DNA of 64,000 bases from Bacteroidales bacterium (lineage in GTDB: Bacteria; Bacteroidota; Bacteroidia; Bacteroidales; VadinHA17): the NCBI GenBank assembly GCA_963668715.1, contig OY764960.1, positions 2,959,602 to 3,023,601 on the forward strand, read 5' to 3'. Of the stretch, positions 9,164 through 55,411 are shown piece after piece; position 1 is the first letter of the stretch, and every line of letters begins with the position of its first letter. Under the pieces are notes generated by a model that was not told the origin of the DNA, ran no database searches, and saw only the letters and a program-made list of their open reading frames with translations. The position numbers were made by a program, and so were the translations under genes.

Positions 9164-10354
9164 TTACAGACCGAGGAGTCTTTCCCTGGTAAAGACAATA
9201 TGAGCGGGGATATCACCTGTTACTGCCTCCCACTTTTTATTGCCTTCAGCATCGAAGCAGTAAACTGTCCCGGGAGTTAAATAATCACCGGCATCAGTAA
9301 CAAAGAATTCCCTGGTTTCAGGATTTACAGCAATACCATAAGGCGTTTCGATCATATCTTCCGTACCGTCTTTTATAAAGCTTCTGGATACAACATTTTG
9401 AGTCCCGGTATTAAAAAGAGTATAGGATACGGTTGTTGATCCTGTATCATAGTTGAACTCCGTGCTGCATATATATAATGAATCGCCGCACAGAGCAAGG
9501 TCACTGGCAGGTATGTTAAGTACATCTGAGACCCTGTCTTTATCAGGGTCAATAACATATATCTTAGACTCCGTATCATAATAGTCTCCCCGTGAGCTAA
9601 CATATATATTATCATAGTTGTCGATCTCCATACGGTGAAGATTAATACCGGCGATAATCTTGTTTGTCTCGGTGAAGGATTCAAGATCAATTACCGAAAC
9701 AGTATTATCATAGTCAGGCACCCTGTATCCTCCCGAGTTGGCTACATACAGTTTATTATTATAAATCACCATTTCTTCGGGTTGGTAGCCTACATTACAG
9801 GTGTCAATAATCTCATAAGTGGCAGTATCAATTTTAGCGACATAACCGAGCCTGGCATTTGGGTCGATAAGCACAGGCCCTGAATATGAGCTGACGTATG
9901 CATAATTTTTATCAAAGACTATGTAACGGCAGTTCGGGACTGTAATGGAAGTAATATGTTCTGCGGTATTAACATCCATTACCTCAATCAGGTTTGAGCA
10001 GTTTATGACTGCATATAGTTTATTTCCGTATATCTGTATGTCATTACCGACATCTCCAAGTTCATGTGTCACATAAGGATTCCTGTCTGCATAGATATTT
10101 TTATAATAGACCCCTGTTTCGTAGTCAAAATAATCCAGGCTTGCTTTATTACTCCCCATATTTCCCTCATTAAGAAGGAAAAAGCCTCTTACAGAGTCTG
10201 TTTCATTACTGCCGGCGCCTACATCTGTAGCATCCGGTTTAATGATGGGATCATCTTTCCGGCATGAATGGATAAGAATGAAAAGCGGAAATACCAATAA
10301 TATTACGATTGTTTCCGGTTTGGATCTGAAAAAATAATTTACACTGGTTTTCAT
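9164..10354 (-). CDS. YncE-like beta-propeller surface lipoprotein, BtuG-like candidate
   Basis: Lipobox LIHSCRKDD, whose K-D-D matches the Bacteroidota lipoprotein export signal. Repeated propeller-blade-like segments are present (LNEGNMGSN..., GDVGNDIQIYGNKLYAV..., LYVANSGG...). It lies immediately downstream of, and overlaps by 4 nt with, the riboswitch-controlled TonB-dependent receptor, as btuG does relative to btuB in Bacteroides. Confidence 0.6.
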   Translation of the reverse strand: MKTSVNYFFRSKPETIVILLVFPLFILIHSCRKDDPIIKPDATDVGAGSNETDSVRGFFLLNEGNMGSNKASLDYFDYETGVYYKNIYADRNPYVTHELGDVGNDIQIYGNKLYAVINCSNLIEVMDVNTAEHITSITVPNCRYIVFDKNYAYVSSYSGPVLIDPNARLGYVAKIDTATYEIIDTCNVGYQPEEMVIYNNKLYVANSGGYRVPDYDNTVSVIDLESFTETNKIIAGINLHRMEIDNYDNIYVSSRGDYYDTESKIYVIDPDKDRVSDVLNIPASDLALCGDSLYICSTEFNYDTGSTTVSYTLFNTGTQNVVSRSFIKDGTEDMIETPYGIAVNPETREFFVTDAGDYLTPGTVYCFDAEGNKKWEAVTGDIPAHIVFTRERLLGL

Positions 10355-12366
10355 ATTGTTACGGTAATAATGAATTTATAATTTATGCCAGGCATAGGAT
10401 AGCACTGAACAACTTCATATTGTTGGTTGAAAAGATTATTAACCTCGGCAGTAAGCCTTATATCATGGTTATTGCGTTTTGTTTTCCATGAGAGGGAAAG
10501 ATCGCTGGTATACCATGGCTGAGTATAGTTCTCGACTATATTGGCTTGCGACTCATACCGCTCGCCGGTATAAATGAAACTATAATTTAGTTCCCATTTT
10601 TTATAGCTGCTGTTAATTATCAGCGAACCGCTGTGCCAGGGAATGTAAGGTATTTGCCCTCCGTAATAATTACTTGCAGGATCAGTGAAATCCTGAGCTT
10701 TCTGGTATGTATAACTGATCCTTGCATCCAGTAAAAAATCATTACCAATATTAAAGCTATTCAAAGCAGAAAGATCAAACCCTCTTATTTCAACATACCC
10801 CAGGTTGACCATAGTCCATCTGAACTGGTTTGATGTGGGCATTGCTACAATTTTATCGGATACTGTGTTGTAATATGCATCGAGCTGTATCTCTATGTTT
10901 TTTAAGTGTTTAAGCGATGTCTCCGTGGAATATGTCATTCCCAGGTTATATTGAGTGGTATATTCAGGATCAAGGTCTGCGTTACCTATGAAAGTATAAT
11001 ACAGGTCATTCAGGGTAGGCATCCTGAAGATATGCTTATAAAAGGCACGCAGGTTAAAATCATGTGTTTTCCATGGTTTGAAGGAAGCAATGACTGTTGG
11101 AGTGAGCTTATTCTTATCGTCAGCAGCATTTTCTCCGGTAAGGGTTTCTTCGTGAACATAAGTGTCCAGAATACTTGCCTGAATTTTAAAACGGTCGAAA
11201 TGCAGGGCAGTTGCCAATGCAATCAGGCCGGTATACCTTCGGGGATAGACAAAGCCATACAGATCAGCATTGAGCAGGTTCCATTGAAAATCAGTTGAAA
11301 TGTTAACTTCCCAGAAGGGGAGGATAAAATAGCGATTGGCTGACGAAATGTATATTTCATGCTGATAATAATGATTATTTATGTACATGGTTGAGATATC
11401 CAGTTCGGGATCGGATAAGTAGTGCAGGTAATCGTATGCATACTTGCATTTGAACATGGTGCTGAACTTATTAAAGGATTTTTTGAAGGAAGACTGGAGG
11501 AAGATGTTGGTATCCCATTGTCTGTCCTGATTTTTAAAGCGTCCGGGTTCTTCTCTTACACAGGCTCCAGGGTATCCTCTTTCGGAGTTATAGAAATAAA
11601 GCTTAGCGTCCCAGTACCCATTGTTATTTAATTTGCCATTCAAGCCATATTCGACCCTTATTGCCTCAACGTCACCGTTCTGTCTTATTGCAGTTGTGTC
11701 ATAGCCATCCTTTTTTGTATAAGTAAATTTGTATTTGCCGTTGGTGTGCATGTATTCAGCATTTATTGAGCCTGACAATGATTCCCTGAGTTTTTTTTCG
11801 AAAAGGATTGATGGGTTGAAGACCCCGAAAGAACCTGTTTTTATTTTTGCCCGGAGATTGGTTGTTTTACAACTGTCAAAAGCAGGTTTCTTCGTCTGCA
11901 GATACAGGGCCCCTGCAGATCCGTAATCCCTGGCAGACTGAAATATTTTGCTTCTTTGCCCGTTATAGACCGAAACCGATTCCATATTATCAAGAGAGAA
12001 CCTGCCGAGATCAATGATACCGTTTTGGGCATTGCCCAATTGAACATCATCATAAAAAATACCTACATGCTGGCTTCCCATGCTTCTGATGTTCACTGTC
12101 TTTAAGCCTCCGATACCCCCGTAGTCCTTTATCTGTATTCCCGAAAAATATCTTATGGCATCGGAAACCGAGTGTACGCTTAGTTTTTGCAGTTCCTTTC
12201 CCTTAAGCATCTGGACAGGAATAACTTCTTTTTCAACCCGGCGGGCTGTTACCACAACTTCATCTATATGTTGTATACTGTCAAGCCTGCTTTGTGAGTT
12301 GGCAGGACATGACACAAAGAGTAAAAAAGCAATTATCAAAAAAATAACATATCCCCGGTCTAACAT
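10351..12366 (-). CDS. btuB: TonB-dependent outer-membrane receptor, cobalamin type (riboswitch-controlled)
   Basis: Signal peptide, plug-domain motifs (DEVVVTARR, VSDAIRYFSGIQIKDYGG, IRSMGSQHVGIFYDDV) and a 671-aa beta-barrel length. A cobalamin riboswitch lies ~140 nt upstream on the same strand. Confidence 0.8.
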   Translation of the reverse strand: MLDRGYVIFLIIAFLLFVSCPANSQSRLDSIQHIDEVVVTARRVEKEVIPVQMLKGKELQKLSVHSVSDAIRYFSGIQIKDYGGIGGLKTVNIRSMGSQHVGIFYDDVQLGNAQNGIIDLGRFSLDNMESVSVYNGQRSKIFQSARDYGSAGALYLQTKKPAFDSCKTTNLRAKIKTGSFGVFNPSILFEKKLRESLSGSINAEYMHTNGKYKFTYTKKDGYDTTAIRQNGDVEAIRVEYGLNGKLNNNGYWDAKLYFYNSERGYPGACVREEPGRFKNQDRQWDTNIFLQSSFKKSFNKFSTMFKCKYAYDYLHYLSDPELDISTMYINNHYYQHEIYISSANRYFILPFWEVNISTDFQWNLLNADLYGFVYPRRYTGLIALATALHFDRFKIQASILDTYVHEETLTGENAADDKNKLTPTVIASFKPWKTHDFNLRAFYKHIFRMPTLNDLYYTFIGNADLDPEYTTQYNLGMTYSTETSLKHLKNIEIQLDAYYNTVSDKIVAMPTSNQFRWTMVNLGYVEIRGFDLSALNSFNIGNDFLLDARISYTYQKAQDFTDPASNYYGGQIPYIPWHSGSLIINSSYKKWELNYSFIYTGERYESQANIVENYTQPWYTSDLSLSWKTKRNNHDIRLTAEVNNLFNQQYEVVQCYPMPGINYKFIITVTI

Positions 12367-12503
12367 TATCAGCCAGTTAAATAATATTCAACAGCTTGCC
12401 GAAAATAAGCACATGAAGAATTTTAAAGATGGCGGGATCGGTTATTGTCCCATATTCTTACGAGTCCTTCAGTTTTATTCCCCGAAAACCAAATAAAATA
12501 TTC

Positions 12504-12685
12504 ATTTTGGCAGGTTTTCTGACTTACTCTGTCTTTGAACGCCCTTCCCATCCCGGGTTTTCGGGACAGTGGATTGAGTATTGTTCAAAGATTTTGGAAG
12601 AGCTTACAGCAGCGGGTCTGTTCAGGATTTACACCTGATTCCCTTTTCACCATTTTTACGAAAATGTAAAATATGGCACCAAAAT
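12504..12685 (-). promoter_or_regulatory. Cobalamin (AdoCbl-type) riboswitch
   Basis: The minus strand reads GGGAATCAGGTGTAAATCCTGAACAGACCCGCTGCTGTAAGC (12643-12602). It continues CCACTGTCCCG...GGGATGGGAAGGGCG and ends with the B12 box AAGTCAGAAAACCTGCC (12525-12509). A P1 helix can form between ATTTTGG (12685-12679) and CCAAAAT (12510-12504). I matched this to the RF00174 consensus from memory only. Confidence 0.85.
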
Positions 12686-12691
12686 CTGTGA

Positions 12692-12699
12692 CAAAAATA
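12692..12699 (-). promoter_or_regulatory. Bacteroidota -7 promoter-like box (TATTTTTG) for the riboswitch operon
   Basis: TATTTTTG on the minus strand ends 6 nt before the predicted P1 5' arm of the riboswitch. Confidence 0.45.
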
Positions 12700-12821
12700 A
12701 TGGATTGCTGTAAACAAAAATATGTTTGATATCAGTTTTTATGAAAACAAAGGGTTTGAAAGTCTGAGGCTGGCAAAGTGCATAGTGAAAAGCCTACAGT
12801 ACACAATGTTAATTCGTTGAT

Positions 12822-12877
12822 TTGTTAAGTTGTTAAGTTGTTAAGTTGTTTAGTTGTTAAGTTGTTTAGTTGTTTAG
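12822..12877. repeat. Tandem 8-nt word array (TTGTTAAG/TTGTTTAG x7), word family D
   Basis: Read directly: ttgttaag x3, ttgtttag, ttgttaag, ttgtttag x2. The same words recur at 46242-46298. Confidence 0.9.
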
Positions 12878-13827: not shown

Positions 13828-13919
13828 TGGCGGAGAGAGAGGGATTCGAACCCTCGGTCCCGATTACTCAGGACAACGGTTTTCGAGACCGCCCCGTTCG
13901 ACCACTCCGGCATCTCTCC
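13828..13919 (-). tRNA. tRNA-Ser (anticodon CGA), CCA encoded
   Basis: The minus strand reads GGAGAGATGCCGGAGTGGTCGAACGGGGCGGTCTCGAAAACCGTTGTCCTGAGTAATCGGGACCGAGGGTTCGAATCCCTCTCTCTCCGCCA. It folds as a cloverleaf with a long variable arm, anticodon loop CUCGAAA and T-loop GTTCGAATC. Confidence 0.9.
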
Positions 13920-34409: not shown

Positions 34410-34465
34410 CTTTAGTCTTTTGTCTTTAGTCTTTAGTCTTTTGTCTTTAGTCTTTAGTCTTTTGT
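34410..34465. repeat. Tandem 7-nt word array (CTTTAGT/CTTTTGT x8), word family A
   Basis: Read directly: ctttagt cttttgt ctttagt ctttagt cttttgt ctttagt ctttagt cttttgt. A degenerate cttcttc unit follows. Confidence 0.9.
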
Positions 34466-34476
34466 CTTCTTCTACA

Positions 34477-35097
34477 TCATTCCCCGCTATCAAAAGGCGT
34501 CCTGTTGACTATTGACCTGCCCAGGGTTACCTCATCAGTATATTCAAGCTCGTCTCCAACAGCCACTCCCCTTGAAAGAGATGTGATCTTTATATTATAT
34601 GGTAATAATCTGCGGTAAATATAATAGTTGGTCGTATCTCCTTCCATAGTGGTGCTTAATGCGAATATGACCTCATCGACCCCCCTTTTTTTTACTTTGT
34701 CCTCAAGCTGATCGATATTAAGGTCGGAAGGACCAATGCCATCCATAGGAGAAATTATCCCGCCAAGGACATGATACAGACCTCTGTATTGTCCTGTATT
34801 TTCAACTGCTATAACGTCTCTGATGTTTTCTACAACACATATTGTTGCTTTGTCCCTGGATCTGTCACTACATATATCGCATACTTCGTTATCAGAAATA
34901 TTAAAACATATTTTACAGTATTTGATCTCTTTCTTAAGCTTTATGATACTTTCCCCGAATCTTTCTACGTCGGAATCTTTCTGTCTGAGTAAATGCATTA
35001 CCAGTCTGAATGCTGTTTTTTTGCCTACTCCCGGCAGGGATGCAAATTCATTTACAGCACTTTCAAGAAGTTTTGATGGATAATCTGAAAAAGTCAT
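34477..35097 (-). CDS. recR: Recombination protein RecR
   Basis: HhH N-terminus ([12 protein letters not shown]), C4 zinc finger [18 protein letters not shown], Toprim region, 206 aa. Confidence 0.9.
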
Positions 35098-37725: not shown

Positions 37726-37796
37726 ATGTATAATACAAAACCGATGTCAAAAGTATGAAAAATGACTGTCCTAAAAAAGCCATGTTATACGATGAA

Positions 37797-38131
37797 GGGC
37801 AAAAGACAAAAGACTAAAGGAATGGAATGATGGAGTAAAGGAATAAAGGAATAATGGAATGATGGAATGATGGAATGATGGAATGATGGAATAATGGAAT
37901 AATGGAATGATGGAATGATGGAATGATGGAATGATGGAATGATGGAATGATGGAATGATGGAATGATGGAATGATGGAATGATGGGTCTTAAAAAGTAAA
38001 TAACATGAGACAGAATGCATACTGTCCGTTTGTCGTTAGTCGTTAGTCGTTTGCCCTTAGTCTGAACAACCCATTTAAACTCATTCTCAATCTTTTAAAC
38101 CCTTTTGTCTTTAGTCTTTAGTCTTTTGTCG
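37797..38131. repeat. Composite intergenic word-repeat element (modules A', B array, spacer, A variant, C', A)
   Basis: gggcaaaagacaaaagactaaag (37797-37819), then (ggaatgat)n, a 40-nt unique spacer and tttgtcgttagtcgttagtcgtttgcccttagtc. Next comes tgaacaacccatttaaactcattctcaatcttttaaaccc, then ttttgtctttagtctttagtcttttgtcg. The end arms are inverted complements. Confidence 0.9.
37819..37985. repeat. Tandem 8-nt array, about 20 copies of GGAATGAT (variants GGAATAAT, GGAATAAA, GGAGTAAA), word family B
   Basis: I counted units directly from 37824 to 37983: 20 full units plus partial units at both ends. Confidence 0.95.
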
Positions 38132-38136
38132 TACAA

Positions 38137-45494: not shown

Positions 45495-46249
45495 AAGCAG
45501 GCGGGAAAGAAATGACCGTTGAGGAAAAACTAAAAGCCTTGTACAGGCTGCAGGTTGTAGATTCAGAAATAGATAAAATAAAGACACTCAGGGGTGAACT
45601 TCCGCTTGAGGTACAGGACCTTGAGGATGATGTTGAAGGTCTCGAGACCAGAATAACCAAACTTAAGGAAGAATTGGCTGATCTCGAAAATGCTGCCAGG
45701 GGCAAGCAAAACGAAATAGTGGATGCTGAGAACCTTATTAAAAAATATGAGGAACAGCAAAACAATGTGCGTAACAACAGGGAATATGATTCCCTTTCAA
45801 AGGAAATAGAATACCAGACCCTCGAGATAGAGTTGTGCAATAAAAAAATAAAGGAATATACGGGTCTGAAGGAAGAAAAGACAGTCGTCATTGAAGACTC
45901 GAAGAAGAATCTGGAAGAGTTGAAAGGTGATCTGGAGAATAAGAAATCGGAGCTTGACTCAATAATTGCCGACACAAGGAAAGAAGAAGAAGCTCTTGTG
46001 AAAGATTCTGATAATATTGGCAAGGTCATAGAAGACAGACTGTTAACAGCATATAAACGTATACGGCAGAACGCAAGGAACGGACTGGCAGTAGTTCCTG
46101 TCCAAAGAGATGCCTGTGGGGGCTGTTTTAACCAGATACCGCCGCAACGACAGCTTGATATTAAATCAAGAAAAAAAATAATAGTGTGTGAGTACTGCGG
46201 ACGTATACTGGTTGACGATGAAATACTTGGTGAAGAAAAAGCTGTTTAG
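45482..46249 (+). CDS. Coiled-coil protein with a C-terminal C4 zinc ribbon (DUF164-like Nif3 partner)
   Basis: E/K-rich coiled coil, then CGGCFNQIPPQ...CEYCGRIL. This pairing with nif3 is conserved. An alternative start is the ATG at 45512. Confidence 0.75.
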   Translation: MEKVKAGGKEMTVEEKLKALYRLQVVDSEIDKIKTLRGELPLEVQDLEDDVEGLETRITKLKEELADLENAARGKQNEIVDAENLIKKYEEQQNNVRNNREYDSLSKEIEYQTLEIELCNKKIKEYTGLKEEKTVVIEDSKKNLEELKGDLENKKSELDSIIADTRKEEEALVKDSDNIGKVIEDRLLTAYKRIRQNARNGLAVVPVQRDACGGCFNQIPPQRQLDIKSRKKIIVCEYCGRILVDDEILGEEKAV

Positions 46250-46337
46250 TTGTTAAGCTGTTTAGTTGTTAAGCTGTTAAGGCTGTTAAGCTGTTGATGG
46301 CCTTTAGCCTTTTGTCTTTAGCCTTTTGTCGTTTGCC
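46242..46337. repeat. Word-repeat locus: D-type 8-mers (CTGTTTAG/TTGTTAAG) followed by A-type 7-mers (CCTTTAG/CCTTTTG)
   Basis: ctgtttag ttgttaag ctgtttag ttgttaag ctgttaag gctgttaag ctgttgat, then cctttag ccttttg tctttag ccttttg tcgtttg. The TAG stop of the upstream gene (46247-46249) lies inside the first unit. Confidence 0.9.
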
Positions 46338-46442: not shown

Positions 46443-48458
46443 ATGAATGAGTTCCATAAACAAATTCTGGAGGGTATTCCTGATGTGCTTCCGGCAGTTA
46501 AGCCATATGACAGCAATGTCAATCATGCACCGAAACGTAAAGATATACTTACAGCAAAAGAAAAACGTCTTGCAGTAAGAAATGCCCTGAGGTATTTTCC
46601 TGAAAATATGCATGAGCAACTGGCTGGTGAGTTTGCCGGTGAACTGAAAAAGTACGGCAGGATATATATGTACAGGTTCAGGCCTGATTATGTGATCAAG
46701 GCAAGGCATATCGATGATTTTCCACACAGATCAAGGCAGGCAGCTGCCATCATGTTAATGATAAGTAACAACCTGGATGATGCGGTGGCCCAGCACCCCC
46801 ATGAACTGATTACTTATGGCGGTAACGGGGCTGTATTCCAGAACTGGGCGCAATACAGGCTTGTTATGAAGTACCTGGCTACAATGACAGACCGTCAGAC
46901 CCTGGTTATGTATTCGGGTCATCCGCTAGGGCTTTTCCCTTCACATACAGAAGCTCCGCGTGTTGTTGTAACAAACGGAATGGTCATTCCTAATTATTCC
47001 AGCAGTGATCACTGGGAGAAGTTCAATGCGCTGGGAGTGAGTCAGTACGGACAGATGACGGCAGGTTCATATATGTATATCGGACCTCAGGGTATAGTGC
47101 ACGGTACAACAATAACGATCCTGAATGCTGCCAGGAGTATATCAGTCTCTGATACTGATAAAAGGTTAAAGCTGTTTGTTTCTTCCGGATTAGGGGGAAT
47201 GTCGGGGGCGCAGCCCAAAGCAGCAAGTATAGCAGGCGTAATATCCGTGATAGCAGAGGTTAATCCGAAAGCTATTGAAAAAAGGTATTCGCAGGGCTGG
47301 GTTGATGAGGTTATTGAAGATACCGCCGGCCTGGTTAAAAGAGTGAAGGAACTCAGAGAAGGAGATGAACCTGTTTCACTTGCATATCACGGAAATATAG
47401 TGGATGTATGGGAAGCTTTTGCTGAAGAAAGTATCATGGTCGATATAGGTTCAGATCAGACATCCCTTCATAATCCATGGTCAGGAGGATATTATCCGGC
47501 AGGCATAAGTTTTGAAAAAGCCAACAGCATGATGTCGGAGGATCCCGGTCAATTCAGGAAACTGGTACAGCAGTCATTGAAGAGACAGGTAAAGGCTATT
47601 AACAGACATACTGCCGCCGGAACATATTTTTTTGATTATGGTAATGCATTTTTACTTGAAGCATCCAGGGCAGGGGCAGATATTCTTAATTCTGATGGTA
47701 GCTTCAGGTATCCAAGTTATGTTCAGGACATTATGGGACCTGTTTGCTTTGACTATGGCTTCGGTCCTTTCAGGTGGGTATGTTGTTCAAACAGAAATGA
47801 AGATCTTGTTGTCACAGATGATATTGCCTGCGGTGTGCTTGAAGAAATATCGGCACACTCGCCGGAACGGATAAAGCAACAGATGCTTGACAATATTAAA
47901 TGGATCCGTGAGGCAGGTAAGAATAATCTGGTAGTAGGATCACAGGCAAGAATACTTTATGCTGATGCAGAGGGCAGGATAGAGATAGCTTCAGCCTTCA
48001 ACAGGGCTATAAGGGACGGAAGGATAAGTGCTCCTGTAGTGCTGGGCAGAGATCACCATGACGTGTCGGGCACGGACTCACCATTCAGGGAGACATCAAA
48101 TATTTATGACGGGTCGTGTTTTACAGCCGACATGGCAATACAGAATGTTATAGGTGATTCTTTCAGAGGCGCTACCTGGGTAAGTATTCATAATGGCGGC
48201 GGAGTAGGATGGGGTGAGGTCATAAACGGAGGGTTCGGACTTCTGCTTGATGGCTCGGATGATGTTGACAGACGATTGAAAACAATGCTCCACTGGGATG
48301 TTAATAATGGAATTGCGAGGAGAAGCTGGGCAAGAAATGATGAAGCTATGTTTACTGCAATCAGGGAGATGGAAAGAACGCCTGAACTGAAAGTGACAAT
48401 GCCTTATATAGCGGATGATAAGCTGATCGAAAATTTGTTCAGGGAAAAGGACGACTAA
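46443..48458 (+). CDS. hutU: Urocanate hydratase
   Basis: 671 aa, GLGGMSGAQPKA NAD-binding segment, YGGNGAVFQNW, GRDHHD; overall urocanase-like. Confidence 0.85.
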   Translation: MNEFHKQILEGIPDVLPAVKPYDSNVNHAPKRKDILTAKEKRLAVRNALRYFPENMHEQLAGEFAGELKKYGRIYMYRFRPDYVIKARHIDDFPHRSRQAAAIMLMISNNLDDAVAQHPHELITYGGNGAVFQNWAQYRLVMKYLATMTDRQTLVMYSGHPLGLFPSHTEAPRVVVTNGMVIPNYSSSDHWEKFNALGVSQYGQMTAGSYMYIGPQGIVHGTTITILNAARSISVSDTDKRLKLFVSSGLGGMSGAQPKAASIAGVISVIAEVNPKAIEKRYSQGWVDEVIEDTAGLVKRVKELREGDEPVSLAYHGNIVDVWEAFAEESIMVDIGSDQTSLHNPWSGGYYPAGISFEKANSMMSEDPGQFRKLVQQSLKRQVKAINRHTAAGTYFFDYGNAFLLEASRAGADILNSDGSFRYPSYVQDIMGPVCFDYGFGPFRWVCCSNRNEDLVVTDDIACGVLEEISAHSPERIKQQMLDNIKWIREAGKNNLVVGSQARILYADAEGRIEIASAFNRAIRDGRISAPVVLGRDHHDVSGTDSPFRETSNIYDGSCFTADMAIQNVIGDSFRGATWVSIHNGGGVGWGEVINGGFGLLLDGSDDVDRRLKTMLHWDVNNGIARRSWARNDEAMFTAIREMERTPELKVTMPYIADDKLIENLFREKDD

Positions 48459-48795
48459 AGACCAAAGGCTAACGACGAAAGGCAAAAGGATTTAAAAGGT
48501 TGAGAATGAGTTGAGAATGAGTTTAAATGGATTGTTCGGACTAAAGGCTAACGACGAACGACTAAAGGGTTGAGAAAAGTTTATAAAAGTTGAATGAGTT
48601 TAGATGACTCCTAATTAACTAATCACCCAATATACAAATTAACATTGTGGATTGTGGACTGCGGATTGAGGACGAAAGGCAGAAGGGTTTAATAGGTTGA
48701 GAATGAGTTGAGAATGAGTTTAAAATGTCATCATTCCAGTACTCCAGTATTCCAGCATTCCACTCCTTTAGTCTTTTGTCTTTCGTCGTCAGTCC
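48445..48795. repeat. Composite intergenic word-repeat element (A', C, A', C-like, unique, E words, A', C, B', A)
   Basis: It is colinear with the reverse complement of 37797-38131. For example, caaaaggatttaaaaggttgagaatgagttgagaatgagtttaaatggattgttcggactaaaggctaacgac matches caaaagggtttaaaagattgagaatgagtttaaatgggttgttcagactaagggcaaacgac. The right end is tcatcattccagtactccagtattccagcattccactcctttagtcttttgtctttcg. Confidence 0.9.
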
Positions 48796-49701: not shown

Positions 49702-50859
49702 TTATGATGATCTGACATTCCTGAAAGCATCAAAATCGAATGACAAAGAAAACCTGAGGGTACGTGCCATAGGATGGTTATTGACCAGAGGCATCAGGTA
49801 TGAAAAATCAAGCGAAAAAACATTCATCCTGAACCCTGCTCCGGCAGTGAAATATTTTCTGTTACCCTTGCTTGCATGTTCATGGAAATACCCCCCCCTG
49901 ATTGCAAATTGTTTGTTATACCAGTATTCAAGCCCGAACGAATAGCTGATCTCGTTAAGTTCTTCCTTCAGTCCTCCCGGTGCATCAGCGAATGACTGGA
50001 ATATTGCAACAGGCATTGAAACATCAGGATTTTTTCCGGCTATAATGGAATCGCCATCCATTAGAGGCGGGGTGGGAACAAGAAGTTTGTTAAGGTCTAA
50101 TGATACATTTATTTTATTGTAATTATCAAGGAAAACGGATGCTGAACCTCCAAGCCTCATATTCATTGGAATGAAATCTCTGGTGTCATCATCAGTATAT
50201 TCCATCTTTGATCCCAGGTTGGACAGATTAGTTCCGAAGGCTATATCACCGTCTTTACTGCCAAAAGAAATTTGTTTGTAATAATAAAAGGAGATATCTG
50301 CCGCTAATGACAGTCCGGGTTTGGTTTCCGTAGCTCCATCATAATAACCGCCGGTCAGATTTGAATAGATAAACCGGAAAGCAATACCCCCGGAAATATT
50401 TTCAGATAATTTCCTGGAGTAGGCAGCATCAAGACTGAATTCATTTGCCCTGAAGATTAACATTTCATTTCCAAAGTTATCGGTGAACTGAATATCTCCC
50501 AGGCTGGAATAAAGAAGGCTGGTGCTGAACACCTGTTTGTCGTCAATTCTGAAGTAACTGGTTAAGTAGGCAATATTAATATCGGGAACAAGAGCTCTCA
50601 GCCAGGGTGAGTATGAAATACCAAGTCCTCCCTCCCCGTCAATAAAAGCATATTTTGCAGGGTTCCAGTGCATGCTGTACAGGTCGGGTGTTGTTGCCAC
50701 CCCCACGTCTCCCATTGCACCTGCCCTCGAGTCAGGTGCTATAAGAAGAAACGGGACCACGTAATGTATGGCGTTCAACTCATCCGTATCCTGTGCCTTT
50801 ATTAGCTGTGGCAGGATCATACATATAATTACAAAGGCAGTTGTTAATCTTATTTTCAT
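49702..50859 (-). CDS. porV: Type IX secretion outer-membrane shuttle/channel protein PorV (FadL-like barrel)
   Basis: Signal peptide (QLIKAQD), APDSRAGAMGDVGVATTPD motif and ~385 aa beta-barrel pattern. It is immediately downstream of porU, the conserved arrangement in Bacteroidota. Confidence 0.8.
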   Translation of the reverse strand: MKIRLTTAFVIICMILPQLIKAQDTDELNAIHYVVPFLLIAPDSRAGAMGDVGVATTPDLYSMHWNPAKYAFIDGEGGLGISYSPWLRALVPDINIAYLTSYFRIDDKQVFSTSLLYSSLGDIQFTDNFGNEMLIFRANEFSLDAAYSRKLSENISGGIAFRFIYSNLTGGYYDGATETKPGLSLAADISFYYYKQISFGSKDGDIAFGTNLSNLGSKMEYTDDDTRDFIPMNMRLGGSASVFLDNYNKINVSLDLNKLLVPTPPLMDGDSIIAGKNPDVSMPVAIFQSFADAPGGLKEELNEISYSFGLEYWYNKQFAIRGGYFHEHASKGNRKYFTAGAGFRMNVFSLDFSYLMPLVNNHPMARTLRFSLSFDFDAFRNVRSS

Positions 50860-50920
50860 TAAAATTTTTTTAGCAAACAAATATATAAACAATTTATACT
50901 ACTCTTTATTGTGCCCCGGG

Positions 50921-53900
50921 CTATAAAATGACCATGCGCCCGGTTATGCGTGCTGTTTCTTCACCCGATTTGAATAATACCGTATACAGATAAACACCGG
51001 CTGCAACCCTGTTACCGTAATTATCTCTTGCATCCCATACTACAGGACTTAATCTGTAACCGTCTGATATTTCCGTTGTCATAATGGTTTTTACCAGTTG
51101 GCCATTCCTTCCGTATATATTGATTATTATCTCGATAGAGGAACCCGGCCTGTTATGTTCAAGGCAGATATTTGTATGGCTGCTGAACGGATTAGGATAG
51201 TTAAACAGCCTGTTAAGGACAAGACCTTCTTCATCCCTGACGAAGAAGACCAGGGAAGCAACAGATGAATTATTATAGCTATCCCATGCTTTCAGGAATA
51301 ATTTGTGTTCCCCCTTGTCAAGGTTATAGAAGGGATAAGTAATGTTTCCCGATTTGTAAGTGCCGAGATCATTTTCATAATAGTTATTCAGGATAATTGA
51401 ATTTCCGATATCCCCGTCCATGAAGGCTACAATGTCATGTCCTATCCCGGTACCTGTTGTGTTGATACTGCCAGGATCACTAAGGCGTGCGAGCAATACA
51501 GGGTCGGTATCTGTAATCCCTCCGTCTTTGAACAGGGTATCGTTCATATAAAGATCTATAACCGGACCTGTTGTGTCGGTAATAATTGTATTACTGAAAC
51601 CTCCTATCGTCAGGGTATCGAAATATCCCTTATAATCGATATTCCCGTCATCGGCGTAATAGCTTATTTTGCCGTTTCCGTATGTATAATCGATATCACG
51701 CGGGATTAGTAATGATATCCTGAACCTGCCGCCGGTAACCTCGGCTTTCCCCCTGAATAAAACCCGTTCGCGTGTATTGTAGCTGAAAGGTAATCCGCCG
51801 TCATTTGCCATTGTTGTAAGTTCGTACTCCTTATCATAAATCTTCGGGTAAATAAATCCGTTGAAAGACTCTGCCAGGTTGCCGTTTACATCACTTATAT
51901 GGCCTGCTATTGTCAGTTCTGAGAGAGCTCTGACGGTATCATTAAAAGAGTAAACATCCGTACCGTTCAAAGAGTCTGTTATTATATTTCCATGCCAGGG
52001 ATAAGCCAGCCTCAGGGCAGGGTCGCCCAGAAGTGTGAAATTTCTTTTGTTCTCTCCTCCGGTATTTACCTTTGCAAACCTTATTATTTCACCCAGTGTA
52101 AGCCCCTTGCCGTCAGGAGTAAGAGAAAATGCATTTTCATATAATTTTGATGCGAGATTATAATTATGCGAGGCAAACACTATTCTTGTGGTTGTCATTA
52201 ATGCAATAGCTCCCCCTTCCGGATTCAATAATACAAGCTCCCCGGCTGATGATTTTTGCGTGATCTCACCTGTTCCTGCTTCAATATCGATATCTTCAAA
52301 ACGTGAAAATTCACATGTAGCAGTAATAAATAAAGGATATTTCCCTTTGTTAGACCATGAATTTATATTTTCAACAGACAGTACCCTTTCATGAGCAAGC
52401 CCCAGTTCATTGCCATGGCCGGCATAATTAAGGATGAGGCATCCGTCATTTATCCTGTCATTAATTGCCCTTGTTGCGTCGGGGTATGAGTCGCCGTTAA
52501 CCGAAGTGACCTGTTTGTAAAGGTCAAGGTATATTTTTTCAATATTAAATGACGGTTCTGCCTCGCTTATTATCTTTGCCAGGTTGTCGGAGTCATTCAT
52601 ATGGATATTACTGTCTTCGTCATCTGCAACCATTGCAATGATATTTCTCCATGGCCCGTTATATTCAGGGCTGATATAATCTTTTATCTTGGTCAGAATT
52701 GCAGCAGCCTGTACTGTATCCGAAACAGGGATCCTTCCTATTCCTATATCCAGTAATCCTTCGTATTCACCTTCGCCTTCGTCCAGCAGCCCGAAAAAAT
52801 CGTCAGATGTGAATGATGAAATACTGATATTGGAGTTCTGTGTCTGGTATGTAGGTATGAAATTCGGATTTTCAGGCGGGAGTTTTTTGTTATCAAACGA
52901 GCCGTCTCCAAAGAGGATCAGGTAACTGAGGGGTTTGTTGCTTCCTTTGTTCCTGTTATAAACCATGCGGATATAGTTTCTTATGGCGCTGATATCAGGT
53001 ATTCCACCTGAAAATTCGTTATAGATCTCTTCCGGGCTTACGATCTTGCTGATATATGAATCATTGGTATAGTGTATTTCTGCAAGCTGGCCGGCATAAT
53101 TACTGAATAACGGATGACTGAGTATTATCATATCGTATTGTTCATCCTGATGCAGGTTCTGGTTTGGCACCGGTTTGTTTTCCAAAACCGGTTTATGTGC
53201 ATCCTGTAGCCTGAATGCAATAAAAGTTCTCAGGCTGTCTGTTTTTGCAATAAACCTGTACTCACCCCGGGAGTATACTTTCTGAATTTCCCTGATCACA
53301 TTATCACCGGTAATATCCCAGATAAACAGGTCGTCATAGCCTGACTGAATACTGAACTCAGTTATATATCCTTCATGTACGGTATTTTTATCCCTGATCA
53401 AAAAGAATCCATCATCAGGGCTCAGGTAGGTATTTTTTATTTTTGTTTTCAATATCAGGTAATCGAGCCATGCCTTTGCATTTGCATCCCCGTTATTATA
53501 AAACGTAACTGATATATCCTGATCCTGTGAGGTCATATTCATTATACCATGTTCCTCTACGATCCTGGCATAGGTGCCTGAAGTATTATAGATATTTACC
53601 TCCGGTATCATTAGCGAACTTATAAGTTCATCATTGTTATAAAGCCTCATTACCGTCTGGTTCTCCGATCTGCCCAGAACTCTGATGTCATACTCCGTAT
53701 CTGCTCCTTCATCTCTTATATAGGAGCCGGCAGATAAATCAATGCTGAATACGGTTCCCGGAGGCACAGGCTGATACCATTCGCGTCCCGACCTTAATAT
53801 ATTATTTTCTTCTTCCTCGTGTATGTCCATGTAGTCGGAAACATCTGAGAAATAATCAGGGGACCCCTCATTATCCATGAGGCTTATCTCCAGGGGAGGT

Positions 53901-54331
53901 TCGTTCAGTTTGATAAAATATACTGCCGTATCAGAATAATAATGTCTTTTGAAATAGTAATCGTTTGCAGTCGGATCGTAAATCCATCTGTGAGTCGACC
54001 TGCCGTAGAACAGAATATAATCGCCATTATTGAATATCCCGTCCTGCCCTCTGTTGACATAGACAGTAGTTTTCAGCAGGTCGTCCGGAGCAGAATCGTC
54101 ATTATAGTATGACAGGAGGCCGAAGTTGTTACTGTAAACAGCTACCTCGTTCCCGGCATTGAGACCAATACCGGCGAGATCCTCAAAGTCGATCCTGTAA
54201 ATACCGTCTTTTGTTATTTTTGCTTTATACCACAACCCGGAAGAGAGAGCAGATGAGGATGTATAATCCTGAGCCTGTACCAAAAACGGTATAGTAACTA
54301 TTGCGGTCAGTATATAAAGCAGCTTCTTCAA
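50921..54331 (-). CDS. porU: Type IX secretion C-terminal signal peptidase PorU (C25 gingipain-like)
   Basis: 1136 aa, C25-like catalytic region (LNYAGHGNE..., FITATCEFSRF), C-terminal T9SS sorting-domain-like NYPNPFSSHT. It shows porU-porV-gldJ synteny. Confidence 0.85.
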   Translation of the reverse strand: MKKLLYILTAIVTIPFLVQAQDYTSSSALSSGLWYKAKITKDGIYRIDFEDLAGIGLNAGNEVAVYSNNFGLLSYYNDDSAPDDLLKTTVYVNRGQDGIFNNGDYILFYGRSTHRWIYDPTANDYYFKRHYYSDTAVYFIKLNEPPLEISLMDNEGSPDYFSDVSDYMDIHEEEENNILRSGREWYQPVPPGTVFSIDLSAGSYIRDEGADTEYDIRVLGRSENQTVMRLYNNDELISSLMIPEVNIYNTSGTYARIVEEHGIMNMTSQDQDISVTFYNNGDANAKAWLDYLILKTKIKNTYLSPDDGFFLIRDKNTVHEGYITEFSIQSGYDDLFIWDITGDNVIREIQKVYSRGEYRFIAKTDSLRTFIAFRLQDAHKPVLENKPVPNQNLHQDEQYDMIILSHPLFSNYAGQLAEIHYTNDSYISKIVSPEEIYNEFSGGIPDISAIRNYIRMVYNRNKGSNKPLSYLILFGDGSFDNKKLPPENPNFIPTYQTQNSNISISSFTSDDFFGLLDEGEGEYEGLLDIGIGRIPVSDTVQAAAILTKIKDYISPEYNGPWRNIIAMVADDEDSNIHMNDSDNLAKIISEAEPSFNIEKIYLDLYKQVTSVNGDSYPDATRAINDRINDGCLILNYAGHGNELGLAHERVLSVENINSWSNKGKYPLFITATCEFSRFEDIDIEAGTGEITQKSSAGELVLLNPEGGAIALMTTTRIVFASHNYNLASKLYENAFSLTPDGKGLTLGEIIRFAKVNTGGENKRNFTLLGDPALRLAYPWHGNIITDSLNGTDVYSFNDTVRALSELTIAGHISDVNGNLAESFNGFIYPKIYDKEYELTTMANDGGLPFSYNTRERVLFRGKAEVTGGRFRISLLIPRDIDYTYGNGKISYYADDGNIDYKGYFDTLTIGGFSNTIITDTTGPVIDLYMNDTLFKDGGITDTDPVLLARLSDPGSINTTGTGIGHDIVAFMDGDIGNSIILNNYYENDLGTYKSGNITYPFYNLDKGEHKLFLKAWDSYNNSSVASLVFFVRDEEGLVLNRLFNYPNPFSSHTNICLEHNRPGSSIEIIINIYGRNGQLVKTIMTTEISDGYRLSPVVWDARDNYGNRVAAGVYLYTVLFKSGEETARITGRMVIL

Positions 54332-54436
54332 TTTTCAGGCTTATTTATTAAGTTTGTCATATATGATCACAATAATAAACGTATCATAATTGTTCATATT
54401 GCGATAATAAAACATCAAATATCCGTTTATCTGTTA

Positions 54437-55411
54437 ATGATCAGAGATGTAAAAATACTTATTCTTGTCTTATGTTTTGCACCTGTTGCTTATCATGCTG
54501 AAGGACAGGATACGGAGTATTTATCATTTTATTATAATCCGGTCAGGTCCAACCCTGCCATGACAGGTTCCGAAGGGGTCGGAAAACTGAGAATGGTGTA
54601 CAGGGATTATTATCCGGGGAGGGGGCTGGATCTTTTTAGTATAGATTGTTCATATGATACCTATATAGACAGGATTCACGGGGGGCTGGGCTTTTTTGTG
54701 TCCGAAAATATGCCGGGCACCGTTTTAAATGACCTCAGGGCAGGCGCCGGGTATTCTTACCACCTGAGGGCAAGCAGGGATCTGTATGTAAATGCCGGGT
54801 TTATGGCTTCTGTAATTTACAGGGGGCTTAATGCCCGGGGAATAATCTTACCTGAACAGATCGACCCTCTGCAGGGTATTGTCTTTCCTGCTTCTGAGAT
54901 TATCAGTTCAGGAGCACATACTTCGTTTGATGCAGGTGTGGGCTTTCTGTTCAGCTATATGAATTATCATGCAGGTATATCCGTCAGCCATCTTTTTAAG
55001 CCTGCTCTGGGAAACAACGGAGTTGATGAATCAAGGCTGGACAGGAGATACTCTTTTCATGGATCGGCGGTTTTCTTACAGGGAGCAGGGGATATAAGCC
55101 TTATTCCCGGATTCCTGTTTAATATTCAGGGTAATAGTACAACAGGCGCTGCCGGACTGAGCTGCCTGTATAAAAACTTTACAGCTAATATAATGCCATT
55201 TGTAAACACAGGGCAGGGATTGATTTTTGTACAATCCGGTATAGGCTTTATAAAAGGACAGGTTGAGATTGGATATAATTATAATTTTGTACCCGTGGCA
55301 GGAAGCGGACTTCAACCATTCACTCTTTCAAATCAGGTGTATGTTTCAATAGGTTTAAATAATGTTGAAAAAAGAGATATTATTAAGGCAATAATATATC
55401 CTAAAATGTAG
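54437..55411 (+). CDS. PorP/SprF family type IX secretion membrane protein
   Basis: 324 aa with a signal peptide, YYNPVRSNPAMTG motif and beta-barrel pattern typical of PorP/SprF. Confidence 0.75.
   Translation: MIRDVKILILVLCFAPVAYHAEGQDTEYLSFYYNPVRSNPAMTGSEGVGKLRMVYRDYYPGRGLDLFSIDCSYDTYIDRIHGGLGFFVSENMPGTVLNDLRAGAGYSYHLRASRDLYVNAGFMASVIYRGLNARGIILPEQIDPLQGIVFPASEIISSGAHTSFDAGVGFLFSYMNYHAGISVSHLFKPALGNNGVDESRLDRRYSFHGSAVFLQGAGDISLIPGFLFNIQGNSTTGAAGLSCLYKNFTANIMPFVNTGQGLIFVQSGIGFIKGQVEIGYNYNFVPVAGSGLQPFTLSNQVYVSIGLNNVEKRDIIKAIIYPKM

Follow-up and report, generated by a model that had tools for sequence, protein, structure and literature searches.

The window analysed here is a stretch of 64,000 nucleotides (nt) from a Bacteroidales bacterium of the VadinHA17 group (contig OY764960.1 of assembly GCA_963668715.1, positions 2,959,602 to 3,023,601), and the subject is a set of short A-rich tandem repeat arrays at the ends of its genes. 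The genes concerned are recR, alaS and hutU, the names of which were confirmed by NCBIfam, and a fourth gene that encodes a CoA_binding_2 protein, as identified through its syntenic orthologues. Behind the stop codons of these four genes the original prediction had read arrays of a GAC(A/T)AAAG word, always in the sense orientation, and had proposed a function in the 3' untranslated region (UTR), including the replacement of canonical terminators. The four sequences that it quoted and the stop-codon coordinates are all correct, and the arrays are real. The word itself, however, is a plain 7-nt tandem repeat: Tandem Repeats Finder (TRF) revealed head-to-tail (GACWAAA)n with a period of 7, 3-8 copies and 80-100% matches. 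Two units (GACWAAAGACWAAAG, at most one mismatch) match 18 times in the window versus 0.04 expected from dinucleotide shuffles.

In total, six GACWAAA-type arrays are present in the 64-kb window, not four. Eight units on the minus strand (34411-34466) begin 10 nt past the recR stop codon (34479-34477) and end 49 nt before the start codon of the aminotransferase gene, with an exact 21-nt super-period of GACAAAA GACTAAA GACTAAA found by TRF. Behind alaS, four units (38103-38130, minus strand) start 6 nt past the stop codon and form the left terminal array of a mosaic block, whose right terminal array is an inverted run of three units (GRCAAAA/GACTAAA) at 37798-37818 on the plus strand that pairs with 38103-38130. 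Another four units (GACAAAA/GGCTAAA) are located at 46303-46330 on the minus strand, between the plus-strand Zn-ribbon gene and hutU. A degenerate array at 48450-48488 (plus strand) contains the hutU stop codon (48456-48458) and is the left terminal array of a second block, termed the hutU/CoA block; the right one, the GGACTGACGACGAAAGACAAAAGACTAAA array at 48767-48795 (minus strand), lies 9 nt past the stop codon of the CoA-binding gene (48807-48805) and pairs with 48450-48488. Two of the six arrays are antisense to every neighbouring gene, as 37798-37818 opposes alaS and the next gene, and 46303-46330 opposes both the Zn-ribbon gene and hutU. The pattern of four sense arrays out of four was thus a result of how the cases had been selected.

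The tight abutment to stop codons, which had also been claimed, is a real feature of the placement within spacers. From stop codon to array there are 10 nt at recR and 6 nt at alaS; at the Zn-ribbon gene and at hutU the distance is 0 nt, as the repeat encloses the stop codon. If arrays were placed uniformly in their own spacers, the joint probability of just the first three distances would be about 0.003. The Zn-ribbon gene ends at 46247-46249 on a repeat-borne TAG within a (AAGCTGTT/TAGTTGTT) octamer array at 46239-46295 on the plus strand. A second octamer array, 8.5 copies of TGTTAAGT at 12807-12874 (plus strand), is found 56 nt past the stop codon of a minus-strand acetyltransferase gene and is A-rich on the sense strand of that gene. 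These two octamer arrays belong to one unit family (AAGTTGTT and AAGCTGTT-TAGTTGTT) and have opposite orientations relative to their neighbour genes.

Comparison with five syntenic relatives, covering 110 kb, revealed that these sites are empty elsewhere. The nearest relatives are named Bacteroidales with an AlaS identity of 70-74%, and all five keep the gene order CoA-binding / hutU / Zn-ribbon / ... / alaS / DUF6452 / ... / recR / aminotransferase. GACWAAA arrays are absent from these 110 kb, as are 7- or 8-nt arrays of at least three copies, and at the same four places their spacers are short and free of repeats, in agreement with the proposal that the arrays are additions at gene ends. The spacer between alaS and the next gene has 43 nt in one relative (L121) versus 411 nt in the window, that between recR and the aminotransferase gene has 77-101 nt in the relatives versus 115 nt, and the hutU and CoA-binding stop codons, which abut or overlap in the relatives (a spacer of 0), are separated by 346 nt in the window. 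In addition, hutU is three codons longer than in the relatives and ends on a repeat-borne TAA. The array-free, short spacers of the relatives show that the arrays are lineage-specific, recent gains of this one Bacteroidota lineage. Away from the stop codon, the window spacers align with those of the relatives, for example in the TTTG-containing CATTTTTCATACTTTTGA ahead of DUF6452; therefore, the repeats were added behind the stop codon and ahead of the conserved promoter or leader. A gene for an AMP-binding, acyl-CoA synthetase-like protein is found between alaS and DUF6452 in four of the five relatives (L118, L277, L278 and L279). Both the window and L121 are without it, and in the window (37726-38136) the place is occupied by the mosaic block.

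The two blocks are related to each other. The alaS block (37798-38130, minus strand) and the hutU/CoA block (48446-48795, plus strand) are two copies of one mosaic of about 340 nt, with a mean column identity of 76% and a well conserved non-tandem core. The module order is an A-rich array, the core, (CGACWAA)n, a variable interior, (CATTCCAN)n and an inverted A-rich array. The core of about 40 nt, GTTGAGAATGAGTTTAAA, consists of RTTTAAAAGRTTGAGAATGAG, once or twice, followed by TTTAAATGGRTTGTTCRGAC. In the alaS block, all on the minus strand, the core module GGGTTTAAAAGATTGAGAATGAGTTTAAATGGGTTGTTCAGAC common to both blocks (38063-38102) adjoins a five-copy (CGACWAA) array (38027-38062), the unit of which, GACWAAC, is one substitution away from GACWAAA, and the interior is filled by 20 copies of the octamer CATTCCAT (ATGGAATG on the plus strand) over 164 nt (37822-37985). 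In the hutU/CoA block, all on the plus strand, the core (ATTTAAAAGGTTGAGAATGAG twice, then TTTAAATGGATTGTTCGGAC) and a (CGACWAA)-type array at 48490-48568 are homologous to 38027-38102. Next come, at 48644-48727, four copies of ATTGTGG, a GACGAAAGGCAGAAGG array remnant and a second core copy (GGTTTAATAGGTTGAGAATGAG twice, then TTTAAAATG), and a four-copy (CATTCCAG) octamer array at 48732-48762 is the short, diverged counterpart of the interior array of the alaS block. The window arrays are accompanied by further short tandem repeats, including (CGACWAA)n, (CATTCCAT)x20, (AAGYTGTT)n, (ATTGTGG)n and the 11-mer GTTGAGAATGA. The terminal inverted arrays of both blocks pair in the minimum free energy (MFE) and centroid folds. 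The presence of two homologous copies implies that some copying between loci has occurred.

Position and polarity were then compared across other genomes, as had been suggested for checking the original prediction. Species-representative genomes were scanned with (GACWAAA)3G, yielding at least 117 loci from other genomes, none of the listed ones overlapping the window; all survey counts in this text are among the matches listed. The loci include 73 from Bacteroidota, and others are from cyanobacteria, gamma-proteobacteria, Acidobacteriota and Patescibacteria. In co-directional spacers, 43 arrays are in sense and 10 in antisense orientation (p = 5.6e-6; 42:10 when counted per spacer), and the bias is present both in Bacteroidota (26:7) and in other phyla (13:2). 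Spacers with arrays are convergent in 25 cases versus divergent in 10. In 18 of 68 cases, no more than 13 nt separate the 5' end of the array from a co-oriented stop codon, versus 10.7 expected under uniform placement within the spacer (p = 0.007). The distance and orientation statistics therefore revealed a sense bias and a modest enrichment near stop codons, but as a tendency and not as a rule. Orthologous arrays of two Limnobaculum species differ in length by exactly 14 nt, equal to two units. Fusions of the array to conserved flanks, each present at several loci, were seen in a Methylococcales sponge symbiont and in Ca. Versatilivorator, namely at L100:1828 and L113:4438/5890/7823, and at L019:3299 and L111:7131, with the flanks ..CCTTGATTTTTGATTAGTTCTGGTGCGTGGAACGCACCCTACGG and ..TTATCCACGAAGGGGCA, respectively; these recurring flanks suggest dispersed elements, one end of which carries heptamer arrays. 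At two other loci (L024:3100-3234 and L101:5650-5816), runs of N that mark assembly gaps directly adjoin the arrays.

The polarity does not belong to the GACWAAA word. In viral contigs the target array was found at 26 loci, and the composition-matched control heptamers CAGWAAA, GCAWAAA, GAWCAAA and GAACWAA at 31, 40, 39 and 50 loci, respectively. The four controls together gave a sense to antisense ratio of 46:12 (p = 8e-6), and the target 7:0. The controls are as frequent and as sense-biased as the target; therefore, the bias belongs to A-rich heptamer repeats generally and word-specific recognition is not needed, so the idea of the word as a specific signal fails. Local base composition was rejected as the cause, since the sense-strand A/T skew of co-directional spacers is only +0.03 after masking of tandem repeats, which is too small. 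These data argue against a factor reading GACWAAA and for either a transcript-level filter that distinguishes long A-rich from U-rich arrays or an expansion process that is asymmetric between strands. Another candidate comparison, whether the A-rich strand is also the sense strand for other heptamers in the same bacterial loci (15:11), was set aside as uninformative, because the arrays compared include many inverted partners of those selected. Giant-virus bins (GVMAG) make up about half of the viral contigs with (GACWAAA)3 (L125-L150); A-rich heptamer arrays therefore occur beyond bacteria and their phages.

Based on these comparisons, we propose with moderate confidence that the arrays are slippage-prone heptanucleotide repeats, of the kind known as long simple sequence repeats (LSSR) and similar to the short tandemly repeated repetitive (STRR) sequences, which are also copied between loci and survive where and how transcripts tolerate them. 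Replication slippage would lengthen and shorten the arrays by whole 7-nt units, and the copying between loci might proceed by recombination between arrays or by some kind of transposition. Their place and polarity would then be effects of survivorship and not of function. In short spacers, the promoter and leader occupy the stretch next to the following gene, and the only tolerated place may be directly after the preceding stop codon; where an array runs over that stop codon, the repeat would supply a new one. The tolerated orientation would be the one that puts the purine-rich, A-rich strand into the transcript, the complement being U-rich and TTTG-rich. The sense orientation of the A-rich strand is consistent with the general purine loading of transcripts. 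The arrays would not terminate transcription, and where inverted arrays flank a block, the transcript could fold into a long stem that may incidentally protect the upstream mRNA.

Several points weigh against this explanation. Slippage cannot seed a block of 346 nt in the zero-length hutU/CoA spacer, nor can it explain two mosaic copies with 76% identity and a conserved non-tandem core; therefore, some copying or insertion step is required. The enrichment next to stop codons (18/68 versus 10.7) would equally fit a function or a targeting mechanism. With a skew of +0.03, a sense bias of 80% needs real selection or a strand-asymmetric mutation process. In addition, the gene calls in the surveys are crude, greedy longest open reading frames (ORFs), and of the source genome the analysis covered the 64 kb of the window.

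Of the alternatives, one has the most weight, although we consider it unlikely: the mosaic of about 340 nt might be a non-autonomous mobile element, similar to a miniature inverted-repeat transposable element (MITE), with heptamer arrays as terminal inverted repeats and a preference for gene ends or stop codons, and solo arrays such as that of recR would be remnants or half-elements. The two copies share module order and orientation as well as the core, their terminal arrays are inverted and pair with each other, the orthologous sites are empty in all five relatives, and one copy is located where two convergent stop codons abut or overlap in those relatives. The arrays fused to dispersed flanks in other genomes (L100/L113 and L019/L111) fit the same idea. 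However, no target-site duplication was found at either block border by comparison with the empty sites of the relatives, and no transposase, reverse transcriptase or REP-associated tyrosine transposase (RAYT) is encoded among the window genes. The mosaic is known from two copies in 64 kb; the core has no match in 122 other loci, and its two matches in the Joint Genome Institute (JGI) metagenomes are both chance hits inside unrelated sequence. Moreover, array lengths and interiors differ greatly between the two copies, and constraint alone also predicts proximity to stop codons. A stronger form would make the mosaic a new kind of small Bacteroidales mobile element that integrates at stop codons, even in a zero-length convergent stop junction, with the arrays serving as recombination or targeting sites and the A-rich strand being kept as a 3'-UTR module; we regard this form as improbable.

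A function of the arrays as RNA elements of 3' UTRs or intercistronic spacers appears improbable as well. Single arrays might serve as unstructured A-rich platforms for single-strand RNA-binding proteins such as S1 or cold-shock-domain proteins, or hold the termination zone open as spacers, whereas inverted pairs might fold into stem-loops that stop 3' exonucleases and stabilise the mRNA upstream, as in the repetitive extragenic palindromic (REP) elements and bacterial interspersed mosaic elements (BIME). The strong sense bias that background composition leaves unexplained, the excess in convergent over divergent spacers and beside stop codons, and the long terminal stems of both mosaic blocks would suit such a role. 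The predicted RNA fold of the recR array is less structured than all 200 of 200 shuffles (z = +2.4), and one cold-shock domain covers a heptamer (PMC1904285), a point that was raised for the TAACTGA repeats (PMC4679880). On the other hand, the five relatives carry no arrays at the same genes, and the genes therefore do not need them. Any A-rich heptamer behaves alike, two of the six window arrays are antisense, a convincing inverted partner accompanies only about 15% of the arrays elsewhere, the blocks reach weak z-scores in folding (-1.2 to -2.2), and a search of the window against Rfam 15 at the gathering score matched the arrays to no RNA family. Selection of the inverted arrays as RNA on one strand was considered separately; the G-U asymmetry test shows no consistent asymmetry, and this test is biased because the U/G-rich strand pairs promiscuously.

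The replacement of terminators, as originally proposed, or a role as Rho entry sites, is barely credible. It drew on the position of the arrays directly after stop codons and on the reported lack of a GC-rich hairpin with a T-run behind all four genes. This lack is not quite complete: three of the four are without a strong one, but the alaS block contains a 6-bp hairpin, GGACAG-N8-CTGTCT, with a T-rich tail (38027->38008, minus strand), which is the sole terminator-like site of the block and is kept in the centroid fold, and a weak one with a T-run, at 48827->48813 (minus strand), overlaps the CoA-binding stop codon. In the relatives, the orthologous sites hold no terminator for an array to replace. 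Both parts of an intrinsic terminator, the GC-rich hairpin and the U-run, are missing from the arrays, and although their RNA is unstructured, each 7-nt unit has one C and one G and no excess of C over G, unlike the C-rich, G-poor Rho utilisation (rut) sites. In other genomes, terminator-like sites follow sense arrays within 150 nt in 7 of 73 cases, a rate at the baseline of 8.3% for array-free gene ends, and in Limnobaculum the array precedes a classical bidirectional terminator. In addition, transcription of recR probably continues across the array into the aminotransferase gene, because no Bacteroidetes-type promoter motif was read in the 49 nt after it. An action at the DNA level, by binding of a cold-shock protein to single-stranded (GTCTTTT)n or by phased A-tracts that bend DNA near promoters, would draw on the in-vitro optimum heptamer of Bacillus subtilis CspB on single-stranded DNA, 5'-GTCTTT(G/T)-3', which is the complement of GACAAAA in register (PMC1904285), and on the exact 21-nt super-period of the recR array, but it is very improbable, as control heptamers without the CspB motif match the arrays in frequency and orientation, the consensus was obtained in vitro with a protein from a Firmicute, and pure (GACAAAA)n arrays have a 7-bp phase with no summed bend. 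Because the controls behave alike, the CspB match is probably a coincidence. The super-period of the recR array puts an A4 tract at every two helical turns and could bend the DNA there.

A literature search with the literal array sequence returned nothing relevant, and the GACWAAA unit and its spread in Bacteroidota are without description in the literature searched. Heptamers are the commonest class of long simple sequence repeats (SSR) in prokaryotes, and polymerase slippage has been proposed as their cause, according to Mrazek 2007 as summarised in PMC4679880 and PMC4692102. Similar to the LSSR of Mrazek, Guo & Shah 2007, as those two papers present them, the arrays consist of head-to-tail 7-nt units with a frequency above chance, are mostly intergenic, exceed chance length, occur sporadically across lineages and, in the Limnobaculum case, differ in copy number by whole units, whereas in the window they are combined into a repeated mosaic with a non-tandem core. 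TAACTGA direct repeats occur in marine Beggiatoaceae, some Cyanobacteria and five Bacteroidetes, with function unassigned (MacGregor 2015, PMC4679880). They are likewise intergenic heptamer direct repeats in a 'forward' orientation, and some overlap the end of the upstream ORF because they have stop codons in all three frames (PMC4679880). However, most of them directly precede start codons, at a distance of a few nt, and heptamers related to them are rare (PMC4679880), whereas the GACWAAA arrays hug stop codons, in the window at least 49 nt from the next start codon, and matched heptamers behave alike. The G-rich heptamer repeats GGGAATC of Xanthomonas and GGGGAYT of Nostoc, which form quadruplexes (Rehm et al. 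2015, PMC4692102), are also intergenic SSRs with some inverted pairs and with lengths that vary at a given locus between related species, but the window arrays are A-rich and unstructured. The GACWAAA arrays belong to the known class of heptamer repeats, of which the unit would be a new member.

The STRR heptamer repeats of heterocystous cyanobacteria, which PMC4692102 mentions, were reportedly described by Mazel and colleagues in 1990, and Elhai and colleagues are said to have found, in 2008, small dispersed repeats nested in heptamer arrays of Nostoc. As in those genomes, tandem heptamers fill intergenic DNA, short non-tandem modules lie between the arrays, inverted pairs occur and the repeats are lineage-specific; the host phylum (Bacteroidota), the units and the core of about 40 nt are different, and the mobility of the mosaic is putative. 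The REP and BIME elements of enterobacteria are extragenic mosaics located at the 3' ends of genes or in between convergent ones, in which inverted copies form transcript stems and the units are imperfect palindromes of about 35 nt. The window mosaic resembles them in its place and in its inverted copies forming stems. Its units, however, are non-palindromic heptamers, no RAYT-like gene was found in the window, and a stabilisation of mRNA is putative here. The wider context of REP elements is provided by the REP doublets forming hairpins (REPIN; PMC3116915).

The window has other features besides the arrays. The Rfam 15 matches are confined to a cobalamin riboswitch (RF00174, 104.9 bits) at 12492-12698 on the minus strand and a tRNA-Ser with anticodon CGA at 13828-13919 (minus strand), which is the sole tRNA found by Rfam in the window. 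The riboswitch lies ahead of a TonB-dependent receptor gene (10351-12366, minus strand), the product of which is closest to vitamin B12 receptors. A type IX secretion cluster at 49702-55411 encodes PorV, a C25 (gingipain-like) peptidase of 1136 amino acids and PorP/SprF. The peptidase has an FlgD Ig-like domain near its C-terminus (residues 1062-1118), and PorV and the peptidase are syntenic with the relatives. Like the AlaS comparison, the type IX genes identify the source as a member of Bacteroidota.

The comparison of gained arrays with empty sites places such repeats exactly between the stop codon and the promoter of the next gene, where they can donate a stop codon. A practical warning is that the arrays shift annotated stop codons and break short-read assemblies or leave scaffold gaps in them. 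The controlled comparison across genomes found that A-rich heptamer arrays of any letter order are about 80% sense despite a near-symmetric composition of the spacers, a result that points to a directly testable filter at the level of the transcript.

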